A DNA stretch of 64,000 bases, taken from an uncultured Leptospiraceae bacterium (lineage in GTDB: Bacteria > Spirochaetota > UBA4802 > UB4802). The stretch spans positions 6,014 through 70,013 of the forward strand of contig CAZAOK010000004.1 in NCBI GenBank assembly GCA_964486725.1. Reading direction: 5' to 3'. Below the pieces are notes generated by a model, which saw only the letters and a list, made by a program, of their open reading frames with translations, made no database searches and was not told where the DNA came from. Numbering within the stretch: the stretch's first letter is position 1; each line of letters opens with the position of its first letter. Both the position numbers and the translations under genes were made by a program. Positions 5,794-51,053 of the stretch are shown here, piece after piece.

Positions 5794-5964
5794 TTAAAGT
5801 GATTTTTCTATTTTTATTTCTTCTTCAACCCATTGACGCTGCTCGGAGGTATCCTCCTGCCCGTCACTGTTCCATTTCAAAATCCCGTAGATGACACAGG
5901 TTGCTGCGCTCAATATACAGAGCACGTATACCGCGAATACCCAGAAGTCCCCAAGTCCCAGCAT
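5794..5964 (-). CDS. Small membrane protein, probable SSS-symporter accessory subunit (YhdT/DUF997-like)
   Basis: About 56 aa with two TM segments (MLGLGDFWVFAVYVLCILSAATCVIYGILKW). It lies 18 nt upstream of the SSS symporter start, the arrangement seen for panF/yhdT-type pairs. Confidence 0.45.
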   Translation of the reverse strand: MLGLGDFWVFAVYVLCILSAATCVIYGILKWNSDGQEDTSEQRQWVEEEIKIEKSL

Positions 5965-6110
5965 TTTCGTCCCCCTTGTAAAAAAAATTTTTTTAAACCT
6001 GAACATAATTGTTTAAATATTCACATGTCAAGAACAAATAAAATATTTAAATGCTAAATCGCAATTGCTTACAATTGAGGCCTGTTGAATTATTTATCTC
6101 GGGATGGTAT

Positions 6111-7023
6111 TCATGGTAGCTGTTGTGCCTTCTTCATGTATTCTGATGCCTCAACATCGTTACCCATGAAGGAATGTATATCATGCATCAACAGCAGCGA
6201 TGTTTCACTGTCAGGGTTTATGGAGATGGCTCTTTCAAGGTATCGTAATGCAAGCTCAAGTTTTCTTTTCCTGTTTGTGGTGGGCAGTGTAGTAAAGTAC
6301 AGGTGGGCAAGGGTGACAAGAGATTTTTCGTCGTTGGGCTTTACGTCGATGAGTTTCTCAAGAACTTCTATCGCGTCTACCGGTTTTCCCTGTTGCCTGT
6401 AAAGATTTGATAGTTCATAATACCCCTGCAGGGCGGCCGGGTTCTTTTCAATCGCCTCCCAGTATTTTTCACCGGCCTGGAGGGTGTCCCCTTTTTGCAG
6501 TTTTCGCCTGGCATTACGTATCAGCGGATCACTTAATGGTTTGCCGATATTGTAACTGATGGTAAAGTGCTCTTCGGCCTTTTGAAAATTTTTCTTGAAA
6601 ATGTAGTATCGCACAAGGTTGATATGCGCGGGGATGTACTTCTTATCAATGGCAACCGACTTTTCAAAATGTTGATATGCCTTGTCTATTTCCAGGAAGA
6701 ACCAGTACAGTGAACCAGCCTTATTATGAATGACATGTTGTGTATCATTAATAACCAGTGATTTTCTATAATACTTCAGGGCTTTCTTCTTAATATTATT
6801 TTTCATGTATATCTCGGCAATAAGATTTGCTGCCTGGTAGAGAGAATCGTTTAGCCTTAATGCCCTGGTGAGATTTTCAATAGCAAATTCATACATCTCG
6901 TGATTGTATTCAATTTTTCCCTTCTTGTAATAATATTGCCATGTGTTTGCTGCAAATGCACTATTTGCGCATAAAATAAAAAATATAACGATTGCCAGGG
7001 GTTTTATTATTGACTTTTTCATG
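6111..7023 (-). CDS. Secreted TPR-repeat protein (signal peptide)
   Basis: Starts at MKKSIIKPLAIVIFFILCANSAFA, followed by TPR-like repeats. The track ORF 6111..7184 is longer only because it reads through the antisense of the tRNA-Phe gene. Confidence 0.6.
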
Positions 7024-7052
7024 TCAGATTTTATATGTGTTTTTGTTTTGCT

Positions 7053-7125
7053 GGTCAGGTAGCTCAGTCGGTAGAGCAGGGGACTGAAAATCCCCGTGTC
7101 GGCGGTTCGATTCCGTCCCTGACCA
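7053..7125 (+). tRNA. tRNA-Phe (GAA)
   Basis: GGTCAGGTAGCTCAGTCGGTAGAGCAGGGGACTGAAAATCCCCGTGTCGGCGGTTCGATTCCGTCCCTGACCA gives a full cloverleaf with anticodon loop CTGAAAA. The CCA tail is not encoded. Confidence 0.85.
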
Positions 7126-7244
7126 TTTCCCTTCAGATTTTTTCTACTCACTATACAGTATATAAATAGTATCGGTATAATCATTTTTTTTATCAGTTTA
7201 CTTCTTATTTTTATAACACAATATCTCGAATTCTTGATAGTGTT

Positions 7245-7395
7245 GTTACTAATCAGCTATTATCAGGTTAAAGATCATTTTCAATATAATGAACAGCTAT
7301 AGAGATGGTTCCCCCGCCTTCGGCGGGGGGAACCATCATAATTTTATTCATTTCGCGATAATTGAATCATTTAATAACGACAGTTGAGCAGTTAC
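7245..7395. repeat. Structured intergenic repeat (MITE/REP-like), copy a, more diverged
   Basis: The central hairpin ggttcccccgccttcggcggggggaacc (7307-7334) is flanked by AT-rich arms and imperfect terminal inverted repeats (gttactaatcagct ... cgacagttgagcagttac). It is homologous to the copies at 24.8, 33.2 and 40.2 kb. Confidence 0.55.
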
Positions 7396-7517
7396 AAAGT
7401 TTTAAAAATTCCGTGGTGTTCAAATTTTTGCTTCTTTCTTGACAAAAAACCGCCGGGTACATATTTCTTAAAGCTGTAGATGTGTAACGTGACAAGATCC
7501 TGTAAACGAGGTTCCTT

Positions 7518-8780
7518 ATGATCGATCCAAGGCTGATTCGTGAAAACATTGATACCGTAAAAGACATGGTAAAGAAGAGGAATATGGAAGGGGTGGTGGA
7601 TTTTTCCCGGCTTGAAACCATTGATGAGGAACGTCGATCACTAATTACCAGTGCAGATGAACTTCGAGAACAACGAAATAAATATTCAAAAGAAATTGGA
7701 AATAAAAAGCAAAAAGGCGAAGACGCAACTGAGATGATGGAAGCGGTAAAGGGGGTTTCTGACAGCATAAAGGAGCTTGAAGCCCGCCTTGCCGTGTTGA
7801 ATGATGAATATAACGACATGGTATTGTCCATTCCCAATATGATTGGTGAAGATGTTCCGGCAGGAGTGGATGAATCTGACAACGTGGAAGTGCGAAGCTG
7901 GGGAAGTAAACCCTCATTCGATTTTGAGCCCCTGCCGCATTATGAAATCGGAACAGCCCTTGATATACTGGATTTTGAACGGGGTGTCAAGATTGCCGGT
8001 GCCAGGTTCTATGTGTACAGGGGGCTGGCTGCCCGCCTGGAAAGGGCAATAATAAACTTCATGCTTGACCTGCATACCCGCGAGAACGGGTACGAAGAGG
8101 TGTTTGGGCCTTTCATCGTTAATGATGAAAGTATGACAGGTACCGGTCAGTATCCAAAGTTCATGGATGAGTATTACCGAATTGAGCGGGACGGGCTCTC
8201 GCTGATCCCCACCGCCGAGGTGACATTGACCAACCTTTACCGGGATGAAATATTACCGGGTGATTCACTACCCGTTAATGTTACCATGCAGTCGTCCTGT
8301 TTCAGAAGAGAAGCGGGAGCAGCAGGCCGTGACACCAGGGGGCTTGTTCGTGTTCACCAGTTTCAGAAGGTTGAACTGGTAAAATTTGTAGAACCTGAAA
8401 CATCATTTGATGAGCTCGAAAAACTGGTGGCCCATGCCGAAGAAGTGTTGAAACGTTTAAACCTGCATTACAGGGTGATGCTCCTTTGCAGTGGAGATAC
8501 TTCGGCATCTTCGGCCAGGACATATGACATAGAAGTCTGGATGCCCGGCCTTAACCGTTACCTGGAGATTTCTTCGTGTTCCAATTTTCTTGATTACCAG
8601 GCCCGCCGGGCGAAGATCCGTTACCGTCCCGCCGCAGGCGGCAAGCCGGTGCTTGTGCACACGTTGAATGGATCAGGTCTGGCCGCGGGTAGAACCATGG
8701 CCGCTGTTATGGAAAACTTTCAAAATAAAGACAAAACCTTCGATATCCCCGATGTACTCAAACCTTACATGGGGATGTAA
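7518..8780 (+). CDS. serS: Seryl-tRNA synthetase
   Basis: 420 aa with an N-terminal coiled-coil arm (MIDPRLIRENIDTVKDMVKKRN) and a class II core (FRREAGAAGRDTRGLVRVHQFQKVE, GSGLAAGRTMAA). Confidence 0.95.
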   Translation: MIDPRLIRENIDTVKDMVKKRNMEGVVDFSRLETIDEERRSLITSADELREQRNKYSKEIGNKKQKGEDATEMMEAVKGVSDSIKELEARLAVLNDEYNDMVLSIPNMIGEDVPAGVDESDNVEVRSWGSKPSFDFEPLPHYEIGTALDILDFERGVKIAGARFYVYRGLAARLERAIINFMLDLHTRENGYEEVFGPFIVNDESMTGTGQYPKFMDEYYRIERDGLSLIPTAEVTLTNLYRDEILPGDSLPVNVTMQSSCFRREAGAAGRDTRGLVRVHQFQKVELVKFVEPETSFDELEKLVAHAEEVLKRLNLHYRVMLLCSGDTSASSARTYDIEVWMPGLNRYLEISSCSNFLDYQARRAKIRYRPAAGGKPVLVHTLNGSGLAAGRTMAAVMENFQNKDKTFDIPDVLKPYMGM

Positions 8781-8797
8781 AACTATATGCGATTACG

Positions 8798-9781
8798 TTG
8801 TTAATGATAGTTGTTGACCTTGAAAATATAGATTGGACAGCATTTCGGCAGGTCGTGGCATTGTCCCTGGCAACCGGCCGGGATTGCAGCATCAGGGGAC
8901 TTGGGCAGCTCTTTGACCACATACATAACAGGCGCATGTGGAAAGTACTGAAAAATATTATGGAATTGATCCCGGGTGTTGACGTAATCGAGCGGGATAA
9001 TCAGGTACGTATTATATCCTCCGGTCTGAAGTACGGAATTTATCACGTTGAAACACACAGGTATGCACCTGTGACGGATATTATTCTTACCCTTGCACCT
9101 GCGTTATCAAATTGTGAATTTGTATCAGAACTACACCTGAAAGGTGTTACCCATTCACCGTACTCACATCCGGCCTCATTTTTGAAAACATCACTGAATG
9201 CGCTGATCACGGACGCGGGATACACGGTGGCCAGTTCGCTGAAAAAATTTGGATTTTATGGTTCAGGTGATGGTGAAATTGTCACGAAAATATATCCCAT
9301 GGTGAAGCATGCAAATTTCATTCTCCCCGTATCGTACAACTGGGAGATGGTGAGTGCCCGTGTGTACGTGGCAAAGATAGATACCGCCTTTGCCAGCTAT
9401 CAAAAAGAATACCTGGCAAAAGAACTGCACATTGATGCTAATTCCATATCAATAATGGAAATTGTGAACAGCAGTGGATATGGGAATCACATTGATGTCA
9501 ATATCCGCGGTGGTGATATGGAGATGGTAGAGTCAATGACCATGATGTTATATAACGCTGATGGTGATTTCGTGTTTACTGATGACAGTATGCGTGACAG
9601 CATGAAAGAATTCTGTGCAAGGATTAAGAATATAATCGATGATAAAAAAATACCATATCCTTTGCTTCGTGAAGCTATTCCGTTTATAAAGCTTGCCGGT
9701 TTGGATTGTGATGAGTATAATGATGCAGAAGATACGGGTATGGAGTTAACACGTAGACTGTGCCAACTGTTTTCATTGTAA
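8798..9781 (+). CDS. RNA 3'-terminal phosphate cyclase (RtcA) family protein, divergent
   Basis: Similar to the RtcA N-terminal region: FRQVVALSLATGRDCSIRGL matches [21 protein letters not shown], and LTLAPALSNCEF..HLKGVTHSPYSHPASF matches LQTVLPAL...GGTDNPSAPPADF. Confidence 0.55.
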   Translation: MLMIVVDLENIDWTAFRQVVALSLATGRDCSIRGLGQLFDHIHNRRMWKVLKNIMELIPGVDVIERDNQVRIISSGLKYGIYHVETHRYAPVTDIILTLAPALSNCEFVSELHLKGVTHSPYSHPASFLKTSLNALITDAGYTVASSLKKFGFYGSGDGEIVTKIYPMVKHANFILPVSYNWEMVSARVYVAKIDTAFASYQKEYLAKELHIDANSISIMEIVNSSGYGNHIDVNIRGGDMEMVESMTMMLYNADGDFVFTDDSMRDSMKEFCARIKNIIDDKKIPYPLLREAIPFIKLAGLDCDEYNDAEDTGMELTRRLCQLFSL

Positions 9782-9871
9782 TGTTTAGTAATAATCATGT
9801 GTACATGAATCAAAGACTGAAGTTGAGCGGCCGAAAAACCGCGGTTATTTATTTATACGTGATATGGGGAA

Positions 9872-10003: not shown

Positions 10004-10459
10004 AATTAATACCCTGATGGATTAGTATGATATAATACACTGTTACTATTTTCGGTTTTCATGATTATTTTGTTAATAAAAAAACTGGGTCATTCCGGAT
10101 TATTGGGAATTGAAAATAATTTTTTATAACAATAACCTTTGAAATTGCAATTCACATAATTTTTTAACTGCAGATAAATGGAATTAAGTGAAAAGTGAAA
10201 GGTGAAAAGTTAGTAGTGACGAGTGATCAGTTCACTTCCCACGGTTCACTATTCACTAATCATCCGCGTTAATCTGCGTTTATCGAGCGAAGCGGGCGGT
10301 TTCATGTATTTAAAGCCGTATGATATCATAAGCTTTTCTTTGGGGGACTAATAATTCATATTCATAAAAATAAATTATGATGGTTTTCCCCAAAATTCCG
10401 GAATGAGCCAAAAAATTAGTTTACAATAAGTAACCGGTGATCTATTATCGCCGACTATT

Positions 10460-24660: not shown

Positions 24661-24986
24661 CTCACCACAGGGGCACTGAGAAACAGAGAGTCGCGTTTAT
24701 AGCCCTGTAAGGATTACCACAGAGACGCCAAGTACGCTAAGTTCGCAAAGAAGAAGATGTTTATAAATATTTTGTAATTACTCAGCTGTCATGATTAAAA
24801 GTTTCAATTATCGTAAAATGAATAATAATATTATGGCTCCCCCGCCGAAGGCGGGGGGAGATGATCAATATTTTAGTCATAGCTGAGTAGTAACGGTTAT
24901 TGTTATAAAAATTATTTTCAATTCCCAATAATCCGGAAAGAGTGAATAAAAAAATTACCTCTGTTTATCTGTGCCCCTGCAGTGAA
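24661..24986. repeat. Composite intergenic unit bounded by ~30-bp imperfect inverted repeats and containing repeat copy b plus a 44-nt shared segment
   Basis: The left repeat ctcaccacaggggcactgagaaacagagag (24661-24690) is the imperfect reverse complement of cctctgtttatctgtgcccctgcagtgaa (24958-24986), with about 22 of 30 positions matching. Inside, segment 24895-24938 is the reverse complement of 10094-10136. Confidence 0.4.
24774..24894. repeat. Structured intergenic repeat (MITE/REP-like), copy b
   Basis: Arms gtaattactcagctgtcatg and tcatagctgagtagtaac flank the central hairpin ctcccccgccgaaggcggggggag (24837-24860). Confidence 0.6.
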
Positions 24987-33088: not shown

Positions 33089-33182
33089 AGAATAACCCGT
33101 GAAATTTTTTTAACTCGAGTTCATTATATCTTATTCAATTTGAATTGTGTCAATATTTATACTTTTAAGTTACAAGAAAAGT

Positions 33183-33334
33183 AGTAACTACTCACCTATG
33201 ACTAAAATATTGATTATATACTTCATAATGAAAAGGAATTTGAGCATCTTCCCCCGCCTTCGGCGGGGGAAGATGCAGGATTATTATTCATTTTGCATAA
33301 TTTGTAATTATTCAGCATGACAGTTGAGTAGTTA
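33183..33334. repeat. Structured intergenic repeat (MITE/REP-like), copy c (inverted orientation)
   Basis: gtaactactcacctatgactaaaatattgat, then hairpin gcatcttcccccgccttcggcgggggaagatgc (33243-33275), then cattttgcataatttgtaattattcagcatgacagttgagtagttac. It is close to the reverse complement of copy d. Confidence 0.6.
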
Positions 33335-33419
33335 CGAAAAGTATTGGAATGAATAAAAAAATAGAAACATTGTAAATTGGTATTGTTGTTGACGAAAGGT
33401 GGTAAATATGAATGAATAA

Positions 33420-36680: not shown

Positions 36681-36971
36681 TTTGAACCTTTTATATTTAT
36701 AATATTACATACGGATAATAGGGGAGTTCAAAGTATTACCATTTCAGGTTTGCAGGGTAAATAAAGGGTGTTGGTAATACGTTTAGTAATCCGCAAAAAT
36801 TGTTATATTTTTAAATATAACTCCCAACGCAGTTGGTCAAGCTTTTTTCATTTTAAACACGAAGGATTTCAGGGTATAAATTAAGTGTAAAGAACTGGAA
36901 CCTCGAAACCGAAAAACTATATATAAATGTATATATTCGTTCAATTTACTTGTTTCCATGGAATAGCAGGT

Positions 36972-38792
36972 TTGAGAACAATAAAAAGAACAGCAGTAAC
37001 TATTCTGATATTTTTAGCTTGTGTGGCGGTATTACCCTTATCACATGCTCAATTCCTGCTGGATAATGGTGATGGCCCCGTTATCCAGCCCAAAAATGAA
37101 AAAAAATCGAAGGGACTTCCGTCCCATGTAGTGCGTAATATAGTGGCATCGTCTGTGCCAGATGTTGAAGGTGCCATAAAAATTTCATGGGATATCCACC
37201 CTGATTCAAGCAATACCTTTATAGTGGGGAGAACTGCAATACTGCCCACCACTAAGGAAAAAGCTTTATCCGCAACATCAATAAAAGTTATTCCACCCGG
37301 TGCGGAGCCAGTAGTCATAGATTCAAATTTACCTCCCGGTCAGTATTACTATGTGGTTCTTGCCAGGGAGAAGATTCAATCTGGCGATATTGAGCTTTAC
37401 CCCGACGTAAACTATACTGGTGAACCGGTGGTTATAGCAAGTAATTATGGGGAGAAACAGGTTCAGGGTTATCCTGAACAGGTTACCCTTATACATGCCA
37501 GGTTGATAAATAAAACACAGGTTCTTCTTACATGGAAAGGTTTAAACAGGGATAATATCAAATATAATATTTACAGGGATACAAAACCACTTAATACTCC
37601 GCAAAGTATTAAAAACGCGAAGAAAATTGCAAGTATTCAGGGTTCCAGGGAAAGCTATATCGACAGGGATCTTGAGGGTACAGGCAATTATTATTACGCA
37701 ATAACGACAAGTGATATGACCGGCAATGAGGATTTACAGCTCATCCCGGATCAGAGTTACCTGACAACAGGTGTACAAGTAATTGTCAAGAGTGATGTGA
37801 CAGTTAAGAACATAGAATCCCGCATGCAGGATAACGGCACGGTACAGGTTACCTGGGACAGGGCAGGGGTGAACGCACAGGAGCTTCTCCTGTACAGGTA
37901 TGAAGAACCCATTCGAAACGCTGAAAGGCTGGCTCTTTCAGATTCACTGGGCACTGTTGATGCGAAATATAATGAATATTTAGACAAAAATCCTCCCCCC
38001 GGCCAGCATTATTATGCAGTCCTGACCAAGTTAGCTGATGGATCAATTGATACAACCCTTCACAGTGGACAGAATTATACCACTACCCCGGTAAAACTGG
38101 GAGAACCCATTGAGATTACACGAATAAATGCTTCACAAGAGAAGAATGGTGTTTCAATAACCTGGCGGTACAGGGGTTCTTCCCGAAGCAAGTATTACAA
38201 ACTGTATCGCACAAACAAGATACCATCTTCGCCAGTGGAAATAAAAGATACCTACCTGGTGGATATTGTTAACGTAACAGAAGAGTCTTATCTCGATACA
38301 GGTATTAGGCCGGGAGAGTATTATTATGTGATAGTCCCCGAAGATTTTGAGAGTGATCCCGATTTAACACTGGTTAAAGATGTGAACATTACAGCAAAGC
38401 CTGTTACTATTGAAAAGACTGTAAAGAAAGTTGAGCAAAAGAAAAAGAAGAAAACACGGGAAAAAGTGATACCTGAAGAAAAAGAACCGGAGCGTATTAC
38501 TCCTCTTCCCGGAAAAGAGTTCCAAGCGGTTACCAGGGATTTAGACAATATTATTCATTCAACCTTTGATAAGGGGTACTACAGGACCGCGATAAAATCA
38601 TTACAGAAGGTTATTGATGTATCCGATAATGACTATGAAGCAGCAAAGGCTAAATTATTTACCGGTCGATCATATATTGAATTAAAACAATACAGGAAAG
38701 GGATTGATTACCTTATGCAGAAAGATGTTTTAAAACATTTTCCAGAAGATGCCCTGTTCTGGAGGGACTATGCCATTCAGAGAGTTCGGTAA
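36972..38792 (+). CDS. Secreted protein with repeated FN3-like beta-sandwich modules
   Basis: Has a signal peptide (RTIKRTAVTILIFLACVAVLPLSHA) with a probable TTG start at 36972. At least four ~90-aa repeats share W..(G/L)...YN(I/L)YR..P and QYYYV/NYYYA/HYYAV motifs, and the C-terminus is TPR-like. Confidence 0.5.
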   Translation: MRTIKRTAVTILIFLACVAVLPLSHAQFLLDNGDGPVIQPKNEKKSKGLPSHVVRNIVASSVPDVEGAIKISWDIHPDSSNTFIVGRTAILPTTKEKALSATSIKVIPPGAEPVVIDSNLPPGQYYYVVLAREKIQSGDIELYPDVNYTGEPVVIASNYGEKQVQGYPEQVTLIHARLINKTQVLLTWKGLNRDNIKYNIYRDTKPLNTPQSIKNAKKIASIQGSRESYIDRDLEGTGNYYYAITTSDMTGNEDLQLIPDQSYLTTGVQVIVKSDVTVKNIESRMQDNGTVQVTWDRAGVNAQELLLYRYEEPIRNAERLALSDSLGTVDAKYNEYLDKNPPPGQHYYAVLTKLADGSIDTTLHSGQNYTTTPVKLGEPIEITRINASQEKNGVSITWRYRGSSRSKYYKLYRTNKIPSSPVEIKDTYLVDIVNVTEESYLDTGIRPGEYYYVIVPEDFESDPDLTLVKDVNITAKPVTIEKTVKKVEQKKKKKTREKVIPEEKEPERITPLPGKEFQAVTRDLDNIIHSTFDKGYYRTAIKSLQKVIDVSDNDYEAAKAKLFTGRSYIELKQYRKGIDYLMQKDVLKHFPEDALFWRDYAIQRVR

Positions 38793-38842
38793 AATTATAT
38801 CGTGGAACACTGTTATCACACAAATGATTGAGGAGCTTATTA

Positions 38843-40078
38843 ATGAAGACTAAAACTATTACAGGGGTAATACTAATAGTATTCGGTCTGGGTTTATTTA
38901 TATACTATGACCAGTATATACAGCCTGAGAGGGAAGCATCAAAGCTCCTTGTCGAAGCAAAAATGATATATGAACGTGGTAACAGGGAAGCAGTAAATGA
39001 TGCTATAAATCTTTTCACAAAAATTATCGCCCGTTATCCTGAAACGGGCATGGTAGGTGAAGCGTACTATTATATCGGGCAATGTTATGAAAAACTTGGT
39101 TTGAAGAGACTTGCATACCTGAAATATGTATACGTTCTTAAAAACAACCGTGAGCAGCTGTCAAAGTCAATGCAAAGAGATATTATTGTACGATTGGCAC
39201 ATATAAATGTTTTGAAAAAAAATTCTGAAGAAGCAATCCACCAGATGTATAGCCTTCTTAATACTTCCTCAAACAAGGAGTTCAGAAGCAGGGTATATTC
39301 CGAGCTTGGGCATACATTTCTAAAGACGGGTGAGTTTAGCAAGGCCCGGCGAATGTTTGAGATTGCTCTACGTGAACACGGCAGTAATGAGGATGCGATA
39401 CTTGGCAGGGCACGCTCATTAAAACATCTTGGCCAGGCAACAAAAGCCTATGACAACTATGACTATTTTCTTAAATACTATGGTGGAATAAGTCAATATG
39501 CTGATGATGTAAGGAGCTCATACAGGGATCAGGCTTACCAGAGCGGTCTTCATGCCTTTCGAAAGGGACAGTACTGGAAAGGAATATCCTTTTTCCAAAG
39601 GGTGCTTACACATTTTCCCGGTCACAAGAGGAGCGAGAATGCACTTTACTGGACGGGTGAATGCTATTTCGCATTGAAAAAATTTGACAGGGCTATAGGG
39701 TATTTCAACAGGACCTTAACTAATAATTTCTACCATAAAGATCAGGACGCGCAGATAAAAAAAGGATACTCATATTTTATGAGCAAGCGATTCGATCTTG
39801 CTGCCAGGGAATTTCAGAAATATTTAAGATATTATCCCAGGGGGAAATACGTATCTGTTGCCCGTGAGTGGAATAAGATGAGTACAAAAGAACTTCAATA
39901 CAGGATACAGCGGAGCAGTCCGTCTGGTGATGTGAAGAAGGAAGAATCATTTCCAGGTGATGAAAATGTTGATGAAAACCTGGATGATGAGCTTGATCTT
40001 CAGGAAGATGAAGAAGTTGCCGCTACTGATCAGACTATATATAGAAAAATAGAACGGGTGAATGTAGCAGAGCTTTAA
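38843..40078 (+). CDS. Membrane-anchored TPR-repeat protein with acidic C-terminal tail
   Basis: Has an N-terminal TM (GVILIVFGLGLFIYY), several TPR-like repeats and a DE-rich tail. ATG 38843 is preceded by a GAGGAG RBS. Confidence 0.55.
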   Translation: MKTKTITGVILIVFGLGLFIYYDQYIQPEREASKLLVEAKMIYERGNREAVNDAINLFTKIIARYPETGMVGEAYYYIGQCYEKLGLKRLAYLKYVYVLKNNREQLSKSMQRDIIVRLAHINVLKKNSEEAIHQMYSLLNTSSNKEFRSRVYSELGHTFLKTGEFSKARRMFEIALREHGSNEDAILGRARSLKHLGQATKAYDNYDYFLKYYGGISQYADDVRSSYRDQAYQSGLHAFRKGQYWKGISFFQRVLTHFPGHKRSENALYWTGECYFALKKFDRAIGYFNRTLTNNFYHKDQDAQIKKGYSYFMSKRFDLAAREFQKYLRYYPRGKYVSVAREWNKMSTKELQYRIQRSSPSGDVKKEESFPGDENVDENLDDELDLQEDEEVAATDQTIYRKIERVNVAEL

Positions 40079-40150: not shown

Positions 40151-40299
40151 CGTAATTACTCAGCTGTCATGCTGAATAATTACAAATTATGCTAAAATGA
40201 ATAATCCTGCATCTCCCCCGCCGAAGGCGGGGGGAGATGCTCAAATTCATTTTCATTATGAAGTAAATGATCAATATTTTAGTCATAGCTGAGTAGTCA
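40151..40299. repeat. Structured intergenic repeat (MITE/REP-like), copy d (most complete)
   Basis: gtaattactcagctgtcatgctgaataattac forms its own hairpin arm. It is followed by the central hairpin gcatctcccccgccgaaggcggggggagatgc (40208-40239) and the right arm atcaatattttagtcatagctgagtagtcac. Confidence 0.6.
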
Positions 40300-40443
40300 C
40301 GAAAAAACGATGAATTTTAATCATTGACAACAACAAAGTTCATGTTGTAACAGTGAGTTATAATTGAAAATCAGATGACCCGCTTGATGAGAGCAATAAT
40401 AAGTTTTAATCAAACATCAGTATAAACATGGAGTGTAATTTGT

Positions 40444-41184
40444 ATGTTCAGGGAATATTTTATAAAAAAACAGAAAGAACTCTTAAAAAAACCTAAAACC
40501 ACATCAAAAACTGCTGCAAAAAAAGGAACCGCGGCATCAAAAAGTAAATCAGCAAAATCAACAACCCCGGTGTCTTATGATTTGAAATATTTTGAAAAGC
40601 TTATGGAAGGATTGTTGCCGCAAAACCTGGTAATAGAAAAAGCTTTGCCCATTGACGCAAGTGGTTATGTGGCAGAGAACCTGGATTATATTATTTATTA
40701 TAATAAATGGCCATCTATCCAGGATATAATGGGGGGACATGTTCCAGCTGAACTGGTATATGCCACATGTCATGTGGAAAATAAATTAACAAAGACATCT
40801 ATTAACAGCATTCTTAATAAAGTAGTTCTGGCAAAAAAGCTGAACAGGTTTACTGAAAATATGAGCCAGGCTTATATGATTCCTGCCTTTGTAATGGTAT
40901 ATGAAAGTACCATAGGTCTTCCGGATATCAAACAAAGTGTTGTAGACTATTATATGGACAAAAGTATAGATTCACTGCTTGAGTTTGATGTGATGTTGAT
41001 TGTCAACAAGGGAATTGTAATAAAAGACTGGCGGGAAAAAAGAAAATTCGTGGCTCTTGAAACAGGTAAAGATTCGCTTATGTGGTTTTTTGTCTTGATG
41101 AATGAATACCTGGAAATTGATGAACAACGGGAAGTAGATCTGCGTAATTACATCCATCAGAAAGAGCGGTATGAAGAGTATTGA
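40444..41184 (+). CDS. Hypothetical protein with lysine-rich N-terminal tail
   Basis: 246 aa. The N-terminal segment KKQKELLKKPKTTSKTAAKKGTAASKSKSAKS resembles histone H1/HU tails, and the rest has no recognisable domain. Confidence 0.4.
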   Translation: MFREYFIKKQKELLKKPKTTSKTAAKKGTAASKSKSAKSTTPVSYDLKYFEKLMEGLLPQNLVIEKALPIDASGYVAENLDYIIYYNKWPSIQDIMGGHVPAELVYATCHVENKLTKTSINSILNKVVLAKKLNRFTENMSQAYMIPAFVMVYESTIGLPDIKQSVVDYYMDKSIDSLLEFDVMLIVNKGIVIKDWREKRKFVALETGKDSLMWFFVLMNEYLEIDEQREVDLRNYIHQKERYEEY

Positions 41185-41307
41185 TGAATGTTGTAGTATT
41201 ATACTTGACATTTTATGAATATTCATTATTAATAATGACACAATACAACTATTATCAATGCGTTTCAGGAGATATATACAGATAATAAATTCGAAAAGGA
41301 GTTCGCC

Positions 41308-42432
41308 TTGAAAACGCAAACAAGAAGAAGTCACGGCGCATTTGCCGTTATACTCAGCGTTGCCATTGTGCTGATGATGGCTGTTCCAAATCTGTATGCT
41401 GCCAAAAAAAAGGATCTCATTCTTGTGCTTGACACATCGTTGAGTATGGCCGGTCACGGGGGAAAAAGTATAATGTCCCGAGTGAAGAAAAGTCTTCCCC
41501 GGTTTATTGATCAGCTTGAAGAGGATGACAGTATAACCTTTATCACGTTTGATACAGATGTAAAGGTGTATCCCCGCATTGTTATTGAAGATGAAAGTAA
41601 CAGGGATGTTATTAAAAAATATATTTCCATGGTAGAGGCAAAAGGAAAGTGGACCTATACCATGCGAATGATTAGAACTGTATTTGCAACAGCGCAAAAA
41701 CTTGAAGACGAATATCCCGACAGGGAAAGGGTTATCGTGGTGCTGACCGACGCGCTTGATGATCCACCGCCATGGCAGGGTGGTGCGCATTTTAATATAA
41801 AAAGTATTGCTGAAAAATATAGCGGGAAAGAATGGTTTATTCATTTTGTCAGCCTTGGAAATCTAAAGCAGAATGAAAAAGTTGCAGAGATCACCAGGCA
41901 GGTAAAAGAGAATGTATCTGAGTATACCAGTCTTGTTGAGACCCGGGAGGATACAGAAAAGGATATTTCAGAAGACCTGACCCGCGAAATGACCACAATG
42001 ATTGAGGACAAAAGAGAAAGTGACAGGATGTTTTTTACACGTCCATGGTTTATCGCGATACTGGTCGTTTTGTTTGTTCTGGTTATAATATATTTTCTTA
42101 AAAAACTTGCCGAACTAAAAGTACGGGGAAAGCTTGAATACTGGAATAATGAGCTTCTTGAGCCATACATTGAAGAGTTCAATCTTACGACAACCAATAG
42201 CAAGTCAGTTTTTATCGGCAGGGGAGTAGGTAATCACCTTAACATCAGGGACTTTGATGTCCGTAAACCTGTAGTTATTTCAGCCGATCGGGAAAGTGGA
42301 GAAGTTAAATGTACCGTGTCTATGACTGGAGAAGAGTCAATAGAGTTTAAGAACAGGAAACCGGGAAAATTTCTGCAGGATGGCGATATTTTTAAAGTTG
42401 CCAATTATACATTTAAGTATTACGAGGAATAA
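41308..42432 (+). CDS. vWA domain - TM helix - FHA-like domain protein
   Basis: Has a signal peptide and a vWA MIDAS motif DTSLSM..T..D (LILVLDTSLSMAGHG). Then come a single TM (WFIAILVVLFVLVIIYFL) and a C-terminal FHA-like region (SVFIGRGVGNHLNIRDFDVRKPVVISADRESGEV). TTG start with an AAAGGAG RBS. Confidence 0.55.
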   Translation: MKTQTRRSHGAFAVILSVAIVLMMAVPNLYAAKKKDLILVLDTSLSMAGHGGKSIMSRVKKSLPRFIDQLEEDDSITFITFDTDVKVYPRIVIEDESNRDVIKKYISMVEAKGKWTYTMRMIRTVFATAQKLEDEYPDRERVIVVLTDALDDPPPWQGGAHFNIKSIAEKYSGKEWFIHFVSLGNLKQNEKVAEITRQVKENVSEYTSLVETREDTEKDISEDLTREMTTMIEDKRESDRMFFTRPWFIAILVVLFVLVIIYFLKKLAELKVRGKLEYWNNELLEPYIEEFNLTTTNSKSVFIGRGVGNHLNIRDFDVRKPVVISADRESGEVKCTVSMTGEESIEFKNRKPGKFLQDGDIFKVANYTFKYYEE

Positions 42433-42649
42433 TACGGGTACAATTTTAAAAATTTATTATATGTGTCAAATAAAGCCTTGACATTATACACTTGACTGTT
42501 AGCATCTATTTGTTTACAATGCAGGTAATAATATATGCATAACCTTCGGCGATAATCTGGCAATAATTATTTCCATAATACAGTTCGCCGCGGATAATCA
42601 TATAAAAACTCAAAATAAGATGATAAGTATTTGATAAGGAGGTCTATAC

Positions 42650-44596
42650 ATGTCAATAGCCCAATTTCCAAAAAGCCCCAATAAGGTTCACCCTTCAGAG
42701 CCGAGCGCTGTCGGGTCGAGAAATTCACTTGCCCAGGAAGGTCGTGATAAAGTTGCTGAGGCGAAGCTGGTTCTGGATGAAACTGTAGACAAGGTGCTTA
42801 ATAATATGGAGAATAAGCTCCCCGAGGAGGTTTTAAAAAACCTTGATGTTATGGGTGGCTTAAAGGAAAAACTCTACAATTATGTGAACCAGACGTATGT
42901 AAACATGTTCAATCGTTATACTGTTACGATGGAAGATGAGTTCGTAAAGAAGGTCAGGGATTTTACCGACCGTGAAGAAGCGAAAGGTCTTGCCCGGTAT
43001 ACGCCACGTGAAATTACGGAACTCCTTGATAAGGTTGGTGGAGCTGATAAGTTTAATACAGGTGAAGTTGAAAAATCCATGGTAAACATGTATGGTCATC
43101 TTCAGGGGCATATTCAGCGCGGTATGAACGATCTTGAAAATGAAACCAATGCAATTTTACGACAGAAGACAGATGTAGGTGCATTCATAAGAGGTGAAAA
43201 CGCATATTCGATAATAAAATGCGTTTTCAAAGATAATTCACTGAAACCCAAGTTTGTTAACGATGTGAAACTTTCAATCAACATACTTGACAGTGAGTTG
43301 ATCAGCCCCATCTATCATTACCAGGTTACCGTTGAGTCTCTTCTTAAAGATGCAATTCAGAAGCACATTCACGATTTGATCGATAAGCAGATCGAATCGC
43401 TTAAAGAAGAGCTTATGGATCAGGGTAAAAGTGAGCTTTCCGGTTCAGAAATTATGTTCGAAAAGGTCAAAAGGATCGAGAACTTCACAGATGATGAAAA
43501 AGAAGATGAGAAGTCAAAACGATACACTATTTTGGCTAAAAAGTTCCTTGATAAAATTGAAGGTCTCCGTGCAGAGATTGATATTGACGAATATGATCCG
43601 CTTAATGTTCGTGAAAATATCAAGTACATCATTGATGAAGAAAATATCAGGAACAGGGGATACAATACCGCTATCAATGCGATCACCTCAATTCTTGATA
43701 CCAGTAAGCTTGGCTACCAGGTTTGTGATAACATGAAAAATGCCAGGATCTGTAATATCCGTGAGTATGAAGAACTTGATTCATCAATTCTTCCCGATGA
43801 GCGCTATCAGATTCGCCTTGCATACTACGATCAGAACCAGTTAAGAGAAGAAAAGAAAGAATATGATCGCCAGATGGATGCCTTTACCCGTGAGATACTC
43901 AGAGCATGGGATGTTGTTCACGCTCATTATGAATCCAAGAAGCGTTTCAGGTCACTCAGGGATTTTGATGACCTGGCAAACAGGCTTATGAGCCGTGATT
44001 GGAGACGAACCAAGCGTGAAGAAGACATGGATCCGAACAGTGTATTGTGGAATGAAATTGGTGAACTCTATAATGAGAATACCTTCGTAGAGAAGAATAA
44101 CAGAACATACGAAGACAGGATCATGAATCTAAAAAATAAGATGAGATACCTCACCAATCGATTGCAGGAAATGCACGGATATCAGAACCCCATAGAGCGT
44201 GTTATTCTTGATGAACGACTTAACTTTATTGAAAGAAGGTTTAACGAGTTCACATACAAGATTAATCCTCACCACATTCAGCCTGGCTTGATTCTTGATG
44301 TTGATATAACAACAATCAAGAGAAAGCAGTATATGCTGAAGGGTATGGCTAATGTGCTTAATGAATTCCTGTACGGTATATCTAAGGGATTCCAGGATGC
44401 TGCCTTCGCAACATTTAAGAGAAGAAGGTCTACAGTAAGAACTGATATCGACCAGTCTTTTTCAACAGAAGAGACAAAGGAAGATATTTTTGAGGCAGCA
44501 TACAAGGCAAGTGCCGGTGAATCAGATGTGAAGGGATCTGTGAATCTTTCACCTAAAGGAAAATCAAAAAAGAGTTCTGGTTTAAAAGAACTGTAA
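42650..44596 (+). CDS. Large hypothetical alpha-helical/coiled-coil protein (648 aa)
   Basis: Strong AAGGAGG RBS. The protein is charged and helix-rich with no recognisable catalytic motif. The gene has its own terminator. Confidence 0.45.
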   Translation: MSIAQFPKSPNKVHPSEPSAVGSRNSLAQEGRDKVAEAKLVLDETVDKVLNNMENKLPEEVLKNLDVMGGLKEKLYNYVNQTYVNMFNRYTVTMEDEFVKKVRDFTDREEAKGLARYTPREITELLDKVGGADKFNTGEVEKSMVNMYGHLQGHIQRGMNDLENETNAILRQKTDVGAFIRGENAYSIIKCVFKDNSLKPKFVNDVKLSINILDSELISPIYHYQVTVESLLKDAIQKHIHDLIDKQIESLKEELMDQGKSELSGSEIMFEKVKRIENFTDDEKEDEKSKRYTILAKKFLDKIEGLRAEIDIDEYDPLNVRENIKYIIDEENIRNRGYNTAINAITSILDTSKLGYQVCDNMKNARICNIREYEELDSSILPDERYQIRLAYYDQNQLREEKKEYDRQMDAFTREILRAWDVVHAHYESKKRFRSLRDFDDLANRLMSRDWRRTKREEDMDPNSVLWNEIGELYNENTFVEKNNRTYEDRIMNLKNKMRYLTNRLQEMHGYQNPIERVILDERLNFIERRFNEFTYKINPHHIQPGLILDVDITTIKRKQYMLKGMANVLNEFLYGISKGFQDAAFATFKRRRSTVRTDIDQSFSTEETKEDIFEAAYKASAGESDVKGSVNLSPKGKSKKSSGLKEL

Positions 44597-44621
44597 AATA
44601 ACAGTCCCATATTTAAGTAAT

Positions 44622-44650
44622 AAAAGGATGGCAAAAGCCATCCTTTTATT
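44622..44650 (+). terminator. Rho-independent terminator
   Basis: ggatggc-aaaa-gccatcc stem followed by TTTTATT. Confidence 0.6.
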
Positions 44651-44664
44651 ATATGGCAAAAGAC

Positions 44665-44693
44665 TTGCAATTAACAAAGTAATATTATATAAT
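44665..44693 (+). promoter_or_regulatory. Sigma70-like promoter (-35 TTGCAA, 17-nt spacer, -10 TATAAT)
   Basis: ttgcaa-ttaacaaagtaatatta-tataat lies about 70 nt upstream of the 44762 ATG. Confidence 0.35.
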
Positions 44694-44761
44694 GCGTTCA
44701 AATAAAGTTCCTTTTATTTTCATTGAGTAACATATATATTCCACTTGAGAGGTATTATATT

Positions 44762-45664
44762 ATGGAAACCACGTACTATTCTCTTGCCACTAAATCGAAT
44801 TTCAATAAGGCATTAAATCATTTTTTTAAAGTTAACGAAGTCGTTGAGGAAGTAGAATCGGGTCAAAATTTTGCTGATGTGATAAATTCATTGCTTTACG
44901 ATGATGAAATCGAATCAGACCAGATACTTCCAATAATTGGAGCTGTTATCAGGGATAAGTACAAGTATTCATATGATTCATTCCATGTTCCTTCTTCCAT
45001 AAATGATTTCAGTAAGATAGCGGCAGAAACAGAAAAATGGACAGCTGTAGATTTATTTACTGTATATTTTAATGCAAGCAACGAGGTATTTCTTATCAAC
45101 CCAAAGAATTCTCAACACTGGGAACGAGTTCGAGAATTATCAAAGGATCAATTAATCATATTATATGCAAAATATTTAAAGGATGAAGAAAATACTAATA
45201 TTGAAAAAGAAGCAATTAATGCAGTTGAAGAGATGATAGCGGGAAGGGATGTTTTTATCAACAAGGAATTTGTCGATGAAACAGTGATACCGAAGACTAC
45301 ACAGAAAAAAGAAAAGCCTGTATCAGAAGGTAAACGGCAGATGACACCCAAGTATTCGATAACTGTAACAAACGAATTATTTCATAACGGGAATGTGGAA
45401 GCATGGAAAAAAATAATTGAAAGCTTTGAGACTTCCCATCCTGACCTGGAAGTGCATATCTATCATGAAGGTGAAAAGATCAATGACATTAATTCGCTAT
45501 TCAAGTGGGGCAAGGTGAAGCATGGAGATCCAATATTCTTCCAGGTGGTGGGGGAAAATATTAAGAATGTTTCAAAGCTGCAAAAATACTTATACGAAGG
45601 TGCAAGCCAGAGATTTGAGCAATTCCTTAAAATTGGTGTGGGTAAAGTTTTAAACCTGTTCTAA
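44762..45664 (+). CDS. Hypothetical protein (300 aa)
   Basis: ATG 44762 is preceded by a GAGAGG RBS. No recognisable domain. The stop is 39 nt upstream of ppdK. Confidence 0.4.
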   Translation: METTYYSLATKSNFNKALNHFFKVNEVVEEVESGQNFADVINSLLYDDEIESDQILPIIGAVIRDKYKYSYDSFHVPSSINDFSKIAAETEKWTAVDLFTVYFNASNEVFLINPKNSQHWERVRELSKDQLIILYAKYLKDEENTNIEKEAINAVEEMIAGRDVFINKEFVDETVIPKTTQKKEKPVSEGKRQMTPKYSITVTNELFHNGNVEAWKKIIESFETSHPDLEVHIYHEGEKINDINSLFKWGKVKHGDPIFFQVVGENIKNVSKLQKYLYEGASQRFEQFLKIGVGKVLNLF

Positions 45665-45702: not shown

Positions 45703-48309
45703 ATGGAAAATATAGTATATTTTAACAAGGACTTTAAAGGATACGACGAAAAGCAGGTCAAAAGTGTTGGTATTCGCGGAAAGAGAGCCGTGGATCTTGC
45801 AGCCATGGGATTACCTATTGCACCTGGTTTCTTAATCGATTCAGAATTAACACTTAAGCTTCCAAAGGTTAATGTTAAACAGGTATTAAAGACATTCATC
45901 GATAAAATCGAAAAAGACACAAAAAAGGGCTACGGTGATCCGGAAAAACCGCTGCTTCTTAAAGTAGTTTTAAGTTCTGATTTAAACATACCATTCTTCC
46001 CATCGATTCATAATATAGGATTGAATGATGAAGTTGTGGAAGGATTCGCAAAATTTACAGATGAAGCATTTGCATGGGGAGAATATCGTTTTCTCCTTCG
46101 AAGCATGGCAATAAAAATATATGGTATAGATGAAGAGGAAATTAATAAACTGGAAGGAAAACTTCCCAAAAAGCCGAAAGCTGAAGATTATAAGGCAGTA
46201 GTGCAAAAATACAAAAAGTTTCTTGGTGACAAGTTTAGTGAAGATGTGTATGATCAACTTGGTCTTATTTTAAAGGGTGCGGCTTCCAGGTATTGTGACT
46301 CTGACATCGATGTTGATAATAGCCTGTCAATAATGGTGCAGGTTATGGTTTACGGAAATTTTGGTGAAAACTCATACGCGGGAAATTATTTCACCCGTAA
46401 TATAATTGATGGTGATCCGAAGATACAGGGTGAATTTCTGCAAAACGAATTTGATGTAGACAGGGGAAAACCCAGGGATATCGATAAGATTGATAAAAAA
46501 TATTATGACAAACTTTCAGACCTGGCCAGAAAGATTGAAGATAATTTTAAAGAGATAAGAAATGTTAAATTTACCATTGAAGAAGGCGATTTTTGGCTTA
46601 TTGAACAAAGAGATGTAGATGAAAAATCCACTCAGTCTCATATAAAAACTCTTCTTGATCTGAATAATAGAAAAGTTATTACTGAAACATATCTTGTTGA
46701 CGCGATCAAACCAAGCCAACTCAATGAATTGCTCCACCCAATTATTGATCCAAGAACGACTAAAAATGTAAAAACGATTAAAGGCGGTATAGCCGGTTCA
46801 ACCGGTGCAGCGATTGGCCGTGTTTATTTTACCACAAACAGGTTGTTAGAGGAATATAAACGGGCTATTATGCATGGTGGGGATACTAATTTGATCCTGG
46901 TTATGCCAGCTACTTACGCTGAAGACGTGAAAGCTATTGAGGTTGCTCAGGGTGTTATATCAACGGAAGGTGGTTTCTCATCTCACGCGCCGGTTGTAGC
47001 AAGAAGCCTTGGGAAAGTGGCGATGGTGCAGCCAGAAATGAAAATAAGAAATAACACGTTTACCCTTGGGGGCAAGACAGTGAAGGAAGGGGATTACATA
47101 TCCATAAATGTTCCCTATTATGAACCCCCAACGTTGTACCTGGGTAAGGTGGGATTGATCGAACCTGATTTCAAAAAGAACGGCTTGCTTGATTTTCTCA
47201 ATATCTGTGAAAAATTTATCGAAGATTTTAACGTAAGGGCTAATGCCGACCAGGCACGTGACGCGAAAGTGGCCGGTGAATTTCATGCTGATGGTATCGG
47301 ACTTTGTAGAACAGAGCATATGTTCTTCAATGAAAAAAGAATTATGAAATTCAGGGAGATGATTCTTTCAGAAAATGAGAAAGAACGAAGAAAAGCACTT
47401 GAAGCGTTGAGGCCAATGCAGCGTTCTGATTTTTACGAGCTGTTTAAAATAATGAAAGGGCATCCTGTAACAATTCGATTACTGGATGCGCCACTTCACG
47501 AGTTCCTGCCTCGTACCGAGGGTAGTATGAAAGAATTTATAAAGTACATGCAGGAAAAGAAAAAAGGATTAACAGCAGCCGAGATTCGCACAAGATGTGA
47601 TGAACTGGGTGAGATGAACCCTATGCTGGGTCACAGGGGATGCAGGGTTGCAGTTACATATCCGGAAATATATGAAATGCAATGCAGGGCAATTTTTGAA
47701 GCAGCATGCATGTTGAAGAAAGAAGGTATAGAGGTTATACCTGAAATCATGATACCCATAGTTATGAGCGATACGGAGATCAAGTTCCTGAAAAATGGCA
47801 AAAAGATTGAAGGTAAAACTGTAAAAGGGATTCGTGATATTAAGGATGAAGTTATTGACGAATATGGTATTGATGAACTGGATTATAAAGTTGGTACAAT
47901 GATCGAATTGCCGGCAGCAGCTGTTGGAGCGGGAAATATCGCGCAGCATGCCGAGTTTTTCAGTTTTGGTACAAATGACCTTACACAGACGACCTATGGA
48001 ATATCGCGGGATGATATTAATTCATTTTTCCCAAGCTACTCATTGTATGACCTGATTAAGCACAATCCTTTCAAGGTTCTTGGTGAAGAGGTTAAAGAGC
48101 TTATAGAGTTAGCGTCACTTCGTGGACGTTTAACAAGACCAAATATTAAAATGGGATTATGTGGAGAGCATGGTGCGGATCCCGAAAATATTGAGTTTTG
48201 TATGGAAGTTGGGCTTAATTATGTGTCCTGTTCTCCATACTCAATCCCCCTGTCAAAGCTCGCGGTGGCACAAATTAACATTAAGAAGTTGCAAACTGAA
48301 GAAGAATAA
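45703..48309 (+). CDS. ppdK: Pyruvate, phosphate dikinase
   Basis: 868 aa with a PEP-utilising mobile domain (GGFSSHAPVVARSLGK) and a C-terminal TIM-barrel carrying the GIGLCRTEHMFF signature plus GTNDLTQ. The N-terminal ATP-grasp region is divergent. Confidence 0.85.
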   Translation: MENIVYFNKDFKGYDEKQVKSVGIRGKRAVDLAAMGLPIAPGFLIDSELTLKLPKVNVKQVLKTFIDKIEKDTKKGYGDPEKPLLLKVVLSSDLNIPFFPSIHNIGLNDEVVEGFAKFTDEAFAWGEYRFLLRSMAIKIYGIDEEEINKLEGKLPKKPKAEDYKAVVQKYKKFLGDKFSEDVYDQLGLILKGAASRYCDSDIDVDNSLSIMVQVMVYGNFGENSYAGNYFTRNIIDGDPKIQGEFLQNEFDVDRGKPRDIDKIDKKYYDKLSDLARKIEDNFKEIRNVKFTIEEGDFWLIEQRDVDEKSTQSHIKTLLDLNNRKVITETYLVDAIKPSQLNELLHPIIDPRTTKNVKTIKGGIAGSTGAAIGRVYFTTNRLLEEYKRAIMHGGDTNLILVMPATYAEDVKAIEVAQGVISTEGGFSSHAPVVARSLGKVAMVQPEMKIRNNTFTLGGKTVKEGDYISINVPYYEPPTLYLGKVGLIEPDFKKNGLLDFLNICEKFIEDFNVRANADQARDAKVAGEFHADGIGLCRTEHMFFNEKRIMKFREMILSENEKERRKALEALRPMQRSDFYELFKIMKGHPVTIRLLDAPLHEFLPRTEGSMKEFIKYMQEKKKGLTAAEIRTRCDELGEMNPMLGHRGCRVAVTYPEIYEMQCRAIFEAACMLKKEGIEVIPEIMIPIVMSDTEIKFLKNGKKIEGKTVKGIRDIKDEVIDEYGIDELDYKVGTMIELPAAAVGAGNIAQHAEFFSFGTNDLTQTTYGISRDDINSFFPSYSLYDLIKHNPFKVLGEEVKELIELASLRGRLTRPNIKMGLCGEHGADPENIEFCMEVGLNYVSCSPYSIPLSKLAVAQINIKKLQTEEE

Positions 48310-48332: not shown

Positions 48333-48369
48333 ATGCCCCACTGGATGTAAAATCGGTGGGGCATTTTTA
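48333..48369 (+). terminator. Rho-independent terminator after ppdK
   Basis: atgccccac-tggatgtaaaatcg-gtggggcat followed by TTTTTAT. Confidence 0.6.
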
Positions 48370-50980: not shown

Positions 50981-51053
50981 AGCTGGCGAGAGGAATTGAA
51001 CCCCCAACAAGCTGATTACAAATCAGCTGCTCTACCGATTGAGCTACGCCAGC
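50981..51053 (-). tRNA. tRNA-Thr (TGT)
   Basis: Reverse complement GCTGGCGTAGCTCAATCGGTAGAGCAGCTGATTTGTAATCAGCTTGTTGGGGGTTCAATTCCTCTCGCCAGCT has anticodon loop TTTGTAA. The T-stem needs two G-U pairs. Confidence 0.7.

Follow-up and report, generated by a model that had tools for sequence, protein, structure and literature searches.

We describe a conserved cfpA locus in a 64,000-nucleotide stretch of DNA (the window; contig CAZAOK010000004.1 of assembly GCA_964486725.1, forward-strand positions 6,014 to 70,013) from an uncultured Leptospiraceae bacterium of the Spirochaetota. Four co-directional genes on the plus strand, at 40444-41184, 41308-42432, 42650-44596 and 44723-45664, form a block delimited by an intergenic repeat at 40151-40301 and a downstream gene resembling pyruvate phosphate dikinase (PPDK; ppdK), just as a first-pass annotation of this DNA had described it; we refer to the genes as g1 (246 aa), g2 (374 aa), g3 or cfpA (648 aa) and g4 (300 aa). 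The third gene encodes CfpA; no other protein is known to form the cytoplasmic filament ribbon of spirochaetes. Our combined explanation, to which as a whole we give a probability of roughly 0.55, is that this stretch carries a conserved cfpA locus, passed on vertically in a free-living spirochaete from an uncultured lineage of metagenome-assembled genomes (MAGs) labelled ‘Leptospiraceae/Spirochaetota’, and made up of two adjacent modules with the functions proposed below. We hold the statements of identity and architecture with high confidence; the functional proposals, which rest on synteny and folds, are each tentative, ranging from doubtful to somewhat short of even odds. The spirochaete cfpA locus is a known kind of locus found here in a new lineage, and not categorically new; what is new are previously undescribed conserved partners of cfpA and a fold for the TP0747 family that had not been reported.

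Against the NCBIfam profile NF040882 (cfpA_ASD), the product of 42650..44596 (+) scored 935.1 bits (cutoff 500; E 2e-281), with residues 6-606 aligned to positions 2-605 of the 605-position profile. A protein that had been described as lacking any recognisable motif is thus a member of a known housekeeping family. It shares 48% identity (E 7.5e-171) with the Treponema primitia ZAS-2 protein that bears the name CfpA and ~48-60% with Treponema-lineage proteins in general, its homologues carry the Pfam domain PF27473 (CfpA_C), and an exhaustive search covering 1.84 billion cluster representatives found 225 related clusters. A sequence search of the PDB with CfpA returned no relative at E ≤ 1, so that solved structures provide no structural insight into it. 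The filaments follow a course parallel to that of the periplasmic flagella, just beneath the cytoplasmic membrane (PMC13398306), and loss of cfpA in Treponema denticola causes division, chromosome and virulence defects, the mutant showing chromosome condensation, filamentous cells and lost virulence (PMC3398590). By homology, the window's CfpA would polymerise into a ribbon beneath the inner membrane.

The cfpA gene carries its own expression signals, as the first-pass annotation had read in part. The strong ribosome-binding site AAGGAGG (42636..42642, +) lies 7 nt before the ATG. Upstream, a consensus scan predicted two overlapping sigma-70-like promoters (42478..42520, +), TTGACA-16-TAGCAT with a TG element and TTGACT-17-TACAAT, each matching 10/12 positions and assigned by consensus match alone. 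Downstream, RNA folding located an intrinsic terminator (44607..44660, +) with the core stem AAAAGGAUGGC/GCCAUCCUUUU followed by UAUUAU; the hairpin folds at -24.1 kcal/mol (z = -6.44, with 0/200 shuffles equally stable) and is trailed by a U-rich tract.

Two observations concern the annotation of CfpA elsewhere. Many clear homologues (P0413, P0421-P0423 and others; ~680 aa, bearing CfpA_C, from Treponema and Spirochaetia MAGs) are labelled ‘cytochrome c oxidase subunit II’ at NCBI, which looks like a propagated misannotation. Two full-length CfpA-like proteins of 45-46% identity, P0393 and P0249, fall outside spirochaete labels, in a MAG labelled Deltaproteobacteria and in the assembly of the mussel Potamilus streckersoni (an 841-aa protein); mis-binning, contamination or transfer may account for them.

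The conservation of the locus was queried by scanning one genome per GTDB species. The scan gave 201 stretches that code for relatives of CfpA, of which the best 80 were fetched with their flanks. These derive from uncultured Spirochaetota or ‘Leptospirales’ MAGs whose CfpA is 59-99% identical to the window protein, the 99% identical locus L001 being the window's own species. The window proteins were compared to the fetched loci by tblastn, with counts restricted to loci possessing enough flank. The order and orientation g1-g2-cfpA-g4-ppdK are kept almost everywhere: cfpA is immediately preceded by g1 and g2 in 64/68 loci and immediately followed by g4 and ppdK in 54/61, in agreement with the co-occurrence that the first-pass annotation had anticipated. 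The partner proteins lose similarity to those of the window as CfpA does (Spearman rho 0.59-0.72), and the partner genes have an ordinary G+C content (0.35-0.40, against 0.41 for the window). Even the divergent g2 homologues P0101 and P0034, encoded on long contigs, are directly upstream of CfpA_C, TP_0747_N and PEP-utilizers genes, and all long-contig g2 homologues examined adjoin cfpA. Synteny across dozens of species, co-divergence and ordinary composition together support a vertically inherited core locus; the suggestion of an island, for which patchy distribution, atypical composition and absence from close relatives would be expected, was not borne out.

The four genes do not, as had been proposed, constitute a single unit. 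Instead, two adjacent modules are split at the cfpA terminator: module A comprises g1-g2-cfpA and module B comprises g4-ppdK. In L086-L088, where there is no nearby cfpA, a 70%-identical g4 homologue sits 38 nt upstream of a PPDK-like gene. In L002-L006, L033, L035 and L081 it is cfpA that stands without g4 and ppdK. Gene spacing follows the same division. The g4-ppdK gap is tight (median 38 nt, interquartile range 24-57, 65 loci), and the median gaps are 184 nt for g1-g2, 213 nt for g2-cfpA and 216 nt for cfpA-g4. Module A is restricted to one large clade, while module B is deep and common to Treponema.

Several observations weigh against a functional bond within module A. By tblastn at 1e-3, g1 and g2 were not detected in L070, L077, L079, L080, L081 and L082, which are Leadbettera (L082), T. 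primitia (L081) and the four most divergent loci; they are therefore not universal partners of CfpA. L084 possesses g2 and is missing g1. The ~200-nt gaps, together with the promoter-like site and the terminator of cfpA, mean that g1 and g2 need not be co-expressed with it. Because cfpA has separate expression signals and g1 and g2 are absent from Treponema, plain neighbourhood is the most serious rival: cfpA would stand alone, g1 and g2 would be an unrelated envelope or periplasmic pair (for example, with a Bat-like vWA protein), g4-ppdK would be metabolic, and slow rearrangement would keep them side by side. A pair of upstream TPR genes and a thiolase gene are also syntenic in the closest clade, as such a history would have it. 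Against this, g1 and g2 hold position and orientation at 31-50% identity, at which distance the TPR pair and the thiolase have long been lost; no long-contig g2 homologue examined lies away from cfpA; and a ribbon beneath the membrane would need a membrane protein with a cytoplasmic protein-binding fold, which g2 could supply. We consider shared ancestry of position without shared function unlikely, yet with an appreciable chance of being correct.

Two further sets of neighbours were observed upstream of cfpA. In L070 (6574-9759) and L079 (7163-9886), two of the four most divergent loci, a 900-1060-aa protein with a transmembrane segment and a LysM-like C-terminal region is encoded immediately ahead of cfpA where g1-g2 would otherwise stand, and may be an alternative lineage-specific partner. 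In the window, the upstream pair (36927-40078) encodes a 621-aa secreted protein with fn3-like repeats and TPR, and a 416-aa TPR protein that barely clears the YbgF/CpoB model; the pair is co-conserved with the block in the closest clade only (L002-L013, L017, L064, L078) and is inverted in L084.

Given the submembrane position of the filaments, the architecture of g2 bears directly on how they might be held. The g2 gene (41308..42432, +; TTG start with AAGGAG 7 nt upstream) encodes a bitopic membrane protein with two hydrophobic segments, at residues ~7-33 and ~240-272. Residues 1-31 are a predicted signal peptide, with a basic n-region and ‘...LYA/AKKK’, which places the following von Willebrand factor A (vWA) domain (residues 36-200) in the periplasm. 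An acidic linker and then a single transmembrane helix follow (residues ~243-265, nt 42034-42102, +), and a Lys/Arg cluster after the second hydrophobic segment puts the C-terminal ~107 residues, an FHA-fold domain (residues 268-374, nt 42109-42429, +), in the cytoplasm. The vWA domain was detected by Pfam (VWA_2, 6.9e-10; VWA, 1.8e-9) and has a complete metal ion-dependent adhesion site (MIDAS): D42-T-S-L-S46 with S44 and S46, T116/T118 and D148 are invariant or near-invariant among 119 g2 family members (position 46 is S112/T7). The fold test on the C-terminal domain recovered the FHA beta-sandwich. The secreted vWA/MIDAS domain, the single helix and the cytoplasmic FHA-like fold are thus as the first-pass annotation had drawn them.

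The phosphothreonine (pThr) signalling that the first-pass annotation attached to this architecture is weakened by the family's residue counts. We placed the FHA residues by profile alignment to the FHA domain of DgcB and column counts, not by superposition (n = 119). Gly304 is invariant and is followed by K58/R35/other 26; the pThr-contacting Ser position varies (K/R/N/S/T/P), the canonical His is replaced (F76/I21/V15), and the Asn loop is unconserved. Pfam FHA did not match the isolated domain even at E ≤ 10, and the g2 profile against the PDB gave a marginal match alone, to the DgcB FHA (E 0.07). Neither the block, as had been noted earlier, nor the annotated neighbourhoods of L083 and L084 encode a kinase or PP2C, and the degenerate pThr-binding residues would explain why these genes are missing. 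One could still suppose g2 to be the sensing component of a transmembrane vWA/FHA/Ser-Thr kinase-phosphatase system whose kinase is encoded elsewhere and whose FHA domain reads pThr marks; the genuine FHA fold, the intact MIDAS and the Arg/Lys after the invariant Gly in 93/119 members would suit it. We judge it improbable in view of the lost Ser, His and Asn loop, the silence of the Pfam model, the lack of kinase and phosphatase genes in these neighbourhoods, and the fact that the nearest functional analogues with degenerate FHA domains (YscD, PrgH, MxiG, EssC) are structural. By analogy to those secretion-system FHA-like domains, the evidence points to a phospho-independent protein binder.

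We propose g2 as a tether. The protein would span the membrane, its cytoplasmic FHA-fold domain holding the ribbon or a ribbon-associated protein, while the periplasmic MIDAS would bind an envelope or flagellum-associated ligand and so fix the course of the ribbon. Tomography has reported ‘bridging and anchoring components’ of the filaments, in the words of a title (Izard 2004) cited in PMC3398590; an identification of these components was not found in the literature searched, and g1 and g2 are candidates for them. Since g1 and g2 are clade-specific, other lineages must employ other bridging or anchoring proteins.

In module B, g4 belongs to the TP0747 family. All g4 homologues listed, at least 120 and one of them 95% identical, bear Pfam PF27497 (TP_0747_N). 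The open reading frame begins at TTG 44723, but homologues of ~300 aa that cover 96% of the query indicate that the start is probably ATG 44762 (44762..45664, +), which fits the 300-aa size given in the first-pass annotation. Thirty-eight nucleotides downstream lies the gene for an 868-aa PPDK-like, phosphoenolpyruvate (PEP)-utilising enzyme (45703..48309, +), which matches PEP-utilizers_C (1e-69), PEP-utilizers (1e-10) and, weakly, the nucleotide-binding domain PPDK_N, and by these Pfam matches still has both its mobile phospho-histidine domain and its PEP-binding barrel. A terminator-like hairpin found by consensus scan (48333..48364, +; 12-bp stem with 7 GC pairs, and a T-run) closes module B.

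In the AlphaFold2 model of g4 (predicted local distance difference test score 81), a disordered linker connects two domains: an N-terminal alpha/beta domain (residues 1-178), for which no informative match was found, and a C-terminal domain (residues ~191-300) predicted to adopt an HPr-like fold. In the model, the C-terminal elements are strand 198-201, helix 209-225, strands 229-235 and 238-240, helix 244-250, strand 257-264 and helix 270-280, an order that equals the HPr topology (beta-alpha-beta-beta-alpha-beta-alpha). The segment N204-K216 (NELFHNGNVEAWK; NELFH208NGNVEAWK) is conserved in 65/65 sequences covering the motif, Leadbettera included, with Ala214 alone varying (3 Ser). His208 (codon 45383-45385), invariant in 65/65, immediately precedes helix 1 and follows strand 1 by seven residues, as does His15 of HPr, by secondary-structure register and not by superposition. 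With this His, the HPr-like domain would engage the phospho-histidine domain of the neighbouring PPDK-like enzyme, and g4 would serve as a phosphoryl acceptor or regulatory subunit that tunes the PEP/pyruvate step.

The comparison with HPr has much to contend with. Foldseek hits of g4 to HPr are not significant (E 0.05-0.3); Pfam gave no PTS-HPr match to the isolated g4 domains at E ≤ 10; a profile of 52 g4 sequences against the PDB yielded a spurious RxLR effector match alone and no HPr; and hhalign of g4 with Escherichia coli HPr returned a probability of 0.1%. An equivalent of HPr Arg17 is missing (H-N-G, not H-x-R), and the Ser46-like position (‘N-S-L-F-K’) varies (S36/A18/T11). The partner enzyme, aligned over residues 11-860 to positions 7-865 of the 865-position TIGR01828 profile, scored 717.8 bits (E 1.6e-215), below the cutoff of 843.45. 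With the HPr matches so weak by structure and absent by sequence, and with cfpA and g4 adjacent from this lineage to Leadbettera and Treponema pallidum, g4 might instead be a CfpA accessory for assembly or bundling, its HPr-like fold a coincidence. The organisation of module B speaks against such a role: where the order is broken, g4 stays just upstream of ppdK in loci lacking cfpA, cfpA occurs in other loci without g4, and the short g4-ppdK gap contrasts with the terminator and ~216 nt that part cfpA from g4. We find an accessory role for g4 slightly less probable even than pThr signalling by g2.

Our two boldest proposals are independent of each other, and we regard them as doubtful: that g2 is one of the long-sought anchoring components, placing the ribbon under the membrane opposite the periplasmic flagella, and that TP_0747-family proteins are HPr-like phosphocarriers charged on their invariant His by the adjacent PPDK-like enzyme. 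If true, the second would amount to an Enzyme-I-independent relay, resembling the phosphotransferase system (PTS), that connects the PEP/pyruvate node, by way of the N-terminal domain of g4, with some further output, and one kept even in the reduced genome of the syphilis agent. In T. pallidum, PPDK is thought to make ATP from PEP, AMP and diphosphate, so a dedicated partner would matter for the metabolism of this pathogen. No mention of TP0747 was found in the literature searched.

We now return to module A and its first gene. The g1 protein (40444..41184, +) is a member of the NucC family of PD-(D/E)xK folds, as attested by PADLOC, Pfam and the PDB. It matched the PADLOC NucC effector model PDLC00745 with residues 45-239 over almost the whole model length (E 3.2e-12), Pfam DUF6602 at 30.5 bits (cutoff 27), and the solved NucC structures 7zgv from Serratia (E 7.7e-7) and 6uxf (E 0.0067). 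The active site of NucC is I-D-x30-E-A-K, formed by Asp73, Glu104 and Lys106 (bioRxiv 10.1101/694703). The first catalytic Asp corresponds to D81 of g1 (nt 40684-40686), invariant in 66/66 orthologues. Among the same 66, the Glu column is F29/H28/other and the Lys column V29/C13/I11/E4/other, and the ‘HVENK’ of the window protein is lineage-specific and unconserved. The N-terminus begins with a conserved MxxxYF, followed by a Lys/Ala/Ser-rich tail (residues ~8-42); the first 45 residues of the window protein contain 13 Lys and Arg, the feature is present in nearly all of the orthologues, and most of them have 9-16. The histone-H1-like lysine tail of the first-pass annotation therefore stands, and its view of g1 as a plain unknown does not, since the remainder has the NucC-family fold.

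We read g1, from these residue patterns, as a nuclease-dead NucC derivative that may serve as a binding or scaffolding module. Its NucC-like oligomer with the Lys-rich tail would bind DNA or the filament and join the nucleoid to the ribbon, which would be in keeping with the chromosome condensation of cfpA mutants; DNA binding, if it occurs, would probably be through the basic tail. The conserved neighbours of g1 are TPR proteins, g2 and cfpA, and neither the window block nor the annotated loci L083 and L084 encode a cyclase such as a CD-NTase or Cas10. A module for anti-phage defence or conflict, inserted beside the repeat with g1 as NucC-like effector nuclease and g2 as vWA-FHA sensor, could claim the NucC matches and the repeat copy immediately upstream, but is very improbable given that the catalytic E-x-K is lost family-wide, that the conserved neighbourhood has no cyclase, that g1 and g2 hold a fixed core position while co-diverging with CfpA at normal G+C content, and that g2, cfpA and g4 have no significant PADLOC match, the NucC match of g1 being the sole one; the defence module raised earlier fails on the same grounds. 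PHROGs searches were uninformative for g1, g2, CfpA and g4.

Taken together, these assignments make two questions testable, the anchoring of the ribbon and the role of TP0747. CfpA proves widespread in uncultured free-living spirochaetes; g2 and the nuclease-dead NucC-like g1 are concrete candidates for the links from ribbon to membrane and from ribbon to DNA, respectively; and g4, the gene between cfpA and ppdK (TP0747 in T. pallidum), is tied to PPDK and not to cfpA. A likely annotation trap is also corrected, in that a NucC match by PADLOC at a cfpA locus does not denote a defence system.

The repeat upstream of g1, which the first-pass annotation called repeat copy d, measures ~150 nt (40151-40301) and is flanked by g1 on one side and by the terminator of the upstream TPR gene on the other. 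Further copies are at 24770-24908 (+) and 33170-33339 (-), with a partial copy at 10090-10140. The window thus has at least three copies, which occur in either orientation and are 84-97% identical in pieces. The element has a hairpin core rich in GC (CTCCCCCGCCGAAGGCGGGGGGAG) and looks like one of the repetitive extragenic palindrome or miniature inverted-repeat transposable element (REP/MITE) type. Direct repeats of at least 60 nt were not found in the window, the repeat beside the block being shorter and gapped. An inverted repeat pair at 7059-7114 and 50992-51047, on opposite strands, resembles tRNA genes (GTAGCTCAGTCGGTAGAGCAG...).

Comparison with known systems places each protein beside a familiar relative and sets it apart. 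NucC, the effector of cyclic oligonucleotide-based antiphage signalling systems (CBASS) and type III CRISPR activated by cyclic triadenylate (cA3), shares with g1 a homologous PD-(D/E)xK fold, the first catalytic Asp and the preceding ‘PAE’ segment. In g1, however, the E and K are replaced by Phe/His and Val/Cys/Ile, a Lys-rich N-terminal tail is added, the cyclase partner is missing, and the gene has a fixed housekeeping place beside cfpA; for these reasons we do not file g1 as a NucC effector. YscD, PrgH and MxiG of type III secretion systems and EssC of type VII secretion systems have, like g2, a cytoplasmic FHA fold on a single transmembrane helix and degenerate pThr residues. The order in g2 is reversed (periplasmic domain, helix, C-terminal FHA), its periplasmic part is a vWA/MIDAS domain instead of ring-building motifs, and secretion-system genes are missing from its surroundings, in the window block as in the annotated loci L083 and L084.

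The relation of g4 to HPr and Enzyme I is more distant. The modelled topology of its C-terminal domain is that of HPr, the invariant His before helix 1 would take the place of His15, and its PEP-utilising partner bears the same phospho-histidine swivel domain as Enzyme I. The two differ in that g4 has no sequence similarity to HPr, no equivalent of Arg17 or of a conserved Ser46, a fused 178-aa TP_0747_N domain and, in place of Enzyme I, a PPDK-like partner.

The closest known system is the cfpA locus of Treponema. Leadbettera (formerly Treponema) azotonutricia ZAS-9 (L082) encodes CfpA_C, then PF27497 (TP_0747_N), then a PEP-utilising enzyme. In T. pallidum, CfpA is TP0748 and pyruvate phosphate dikinase is TP0746, and the two genes are read from the reverse strand (PMC3373638), which gives the same transcriptional order cfpA-TP0747-ppdK. 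Upstream, Leadbettera has on the strand opposite cfpA (5832-9841) a 191-aa unknown protein, a DHH/DHHA1 protein and a 498-aa Pallilysin-domain (PF18663) protein, adjoined on the cfpA strand by a TP_0752_M/SPOR protein; in this place the window has the NucC-like and vWA-TM-FHA proteins. The Leadbettera arrangement indicates that the TP0751/TP0752 neighbourhood of cfpA in T. pallidum is ancestral to the Treponema lineage. T. pallidum also encodes, two genes from cfpA, the 224-aa periplasmic vWA protein TP0750, which might be a relative of g2. In T. primitia ZAS-2 (L081; CP001843.1, 2239918-2261879), the neighbours of cfpA encode giant proteins with Big domains (6174 and 1465 aa) and, after cfpA, a solute-binding protein. 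Both TP_0747 and ppdK are missing from this paralogous context, which is uninformative for synteny; a further CfpA-like protein of 587 aa (P0435) shows that the gene is duplicated in the species. The host of the window differs from Treponema in being an uncultured, free-living, Leptospirales-labelled lineage, and shares with it a full-length NF040882-family CfpA followed on one strand by a TP_0747-family gene and a PPDK-like gene; by homology to Treponema, T. denticola cfpA included, a ribbon beneath the membrane would be expected from the genes seen here.

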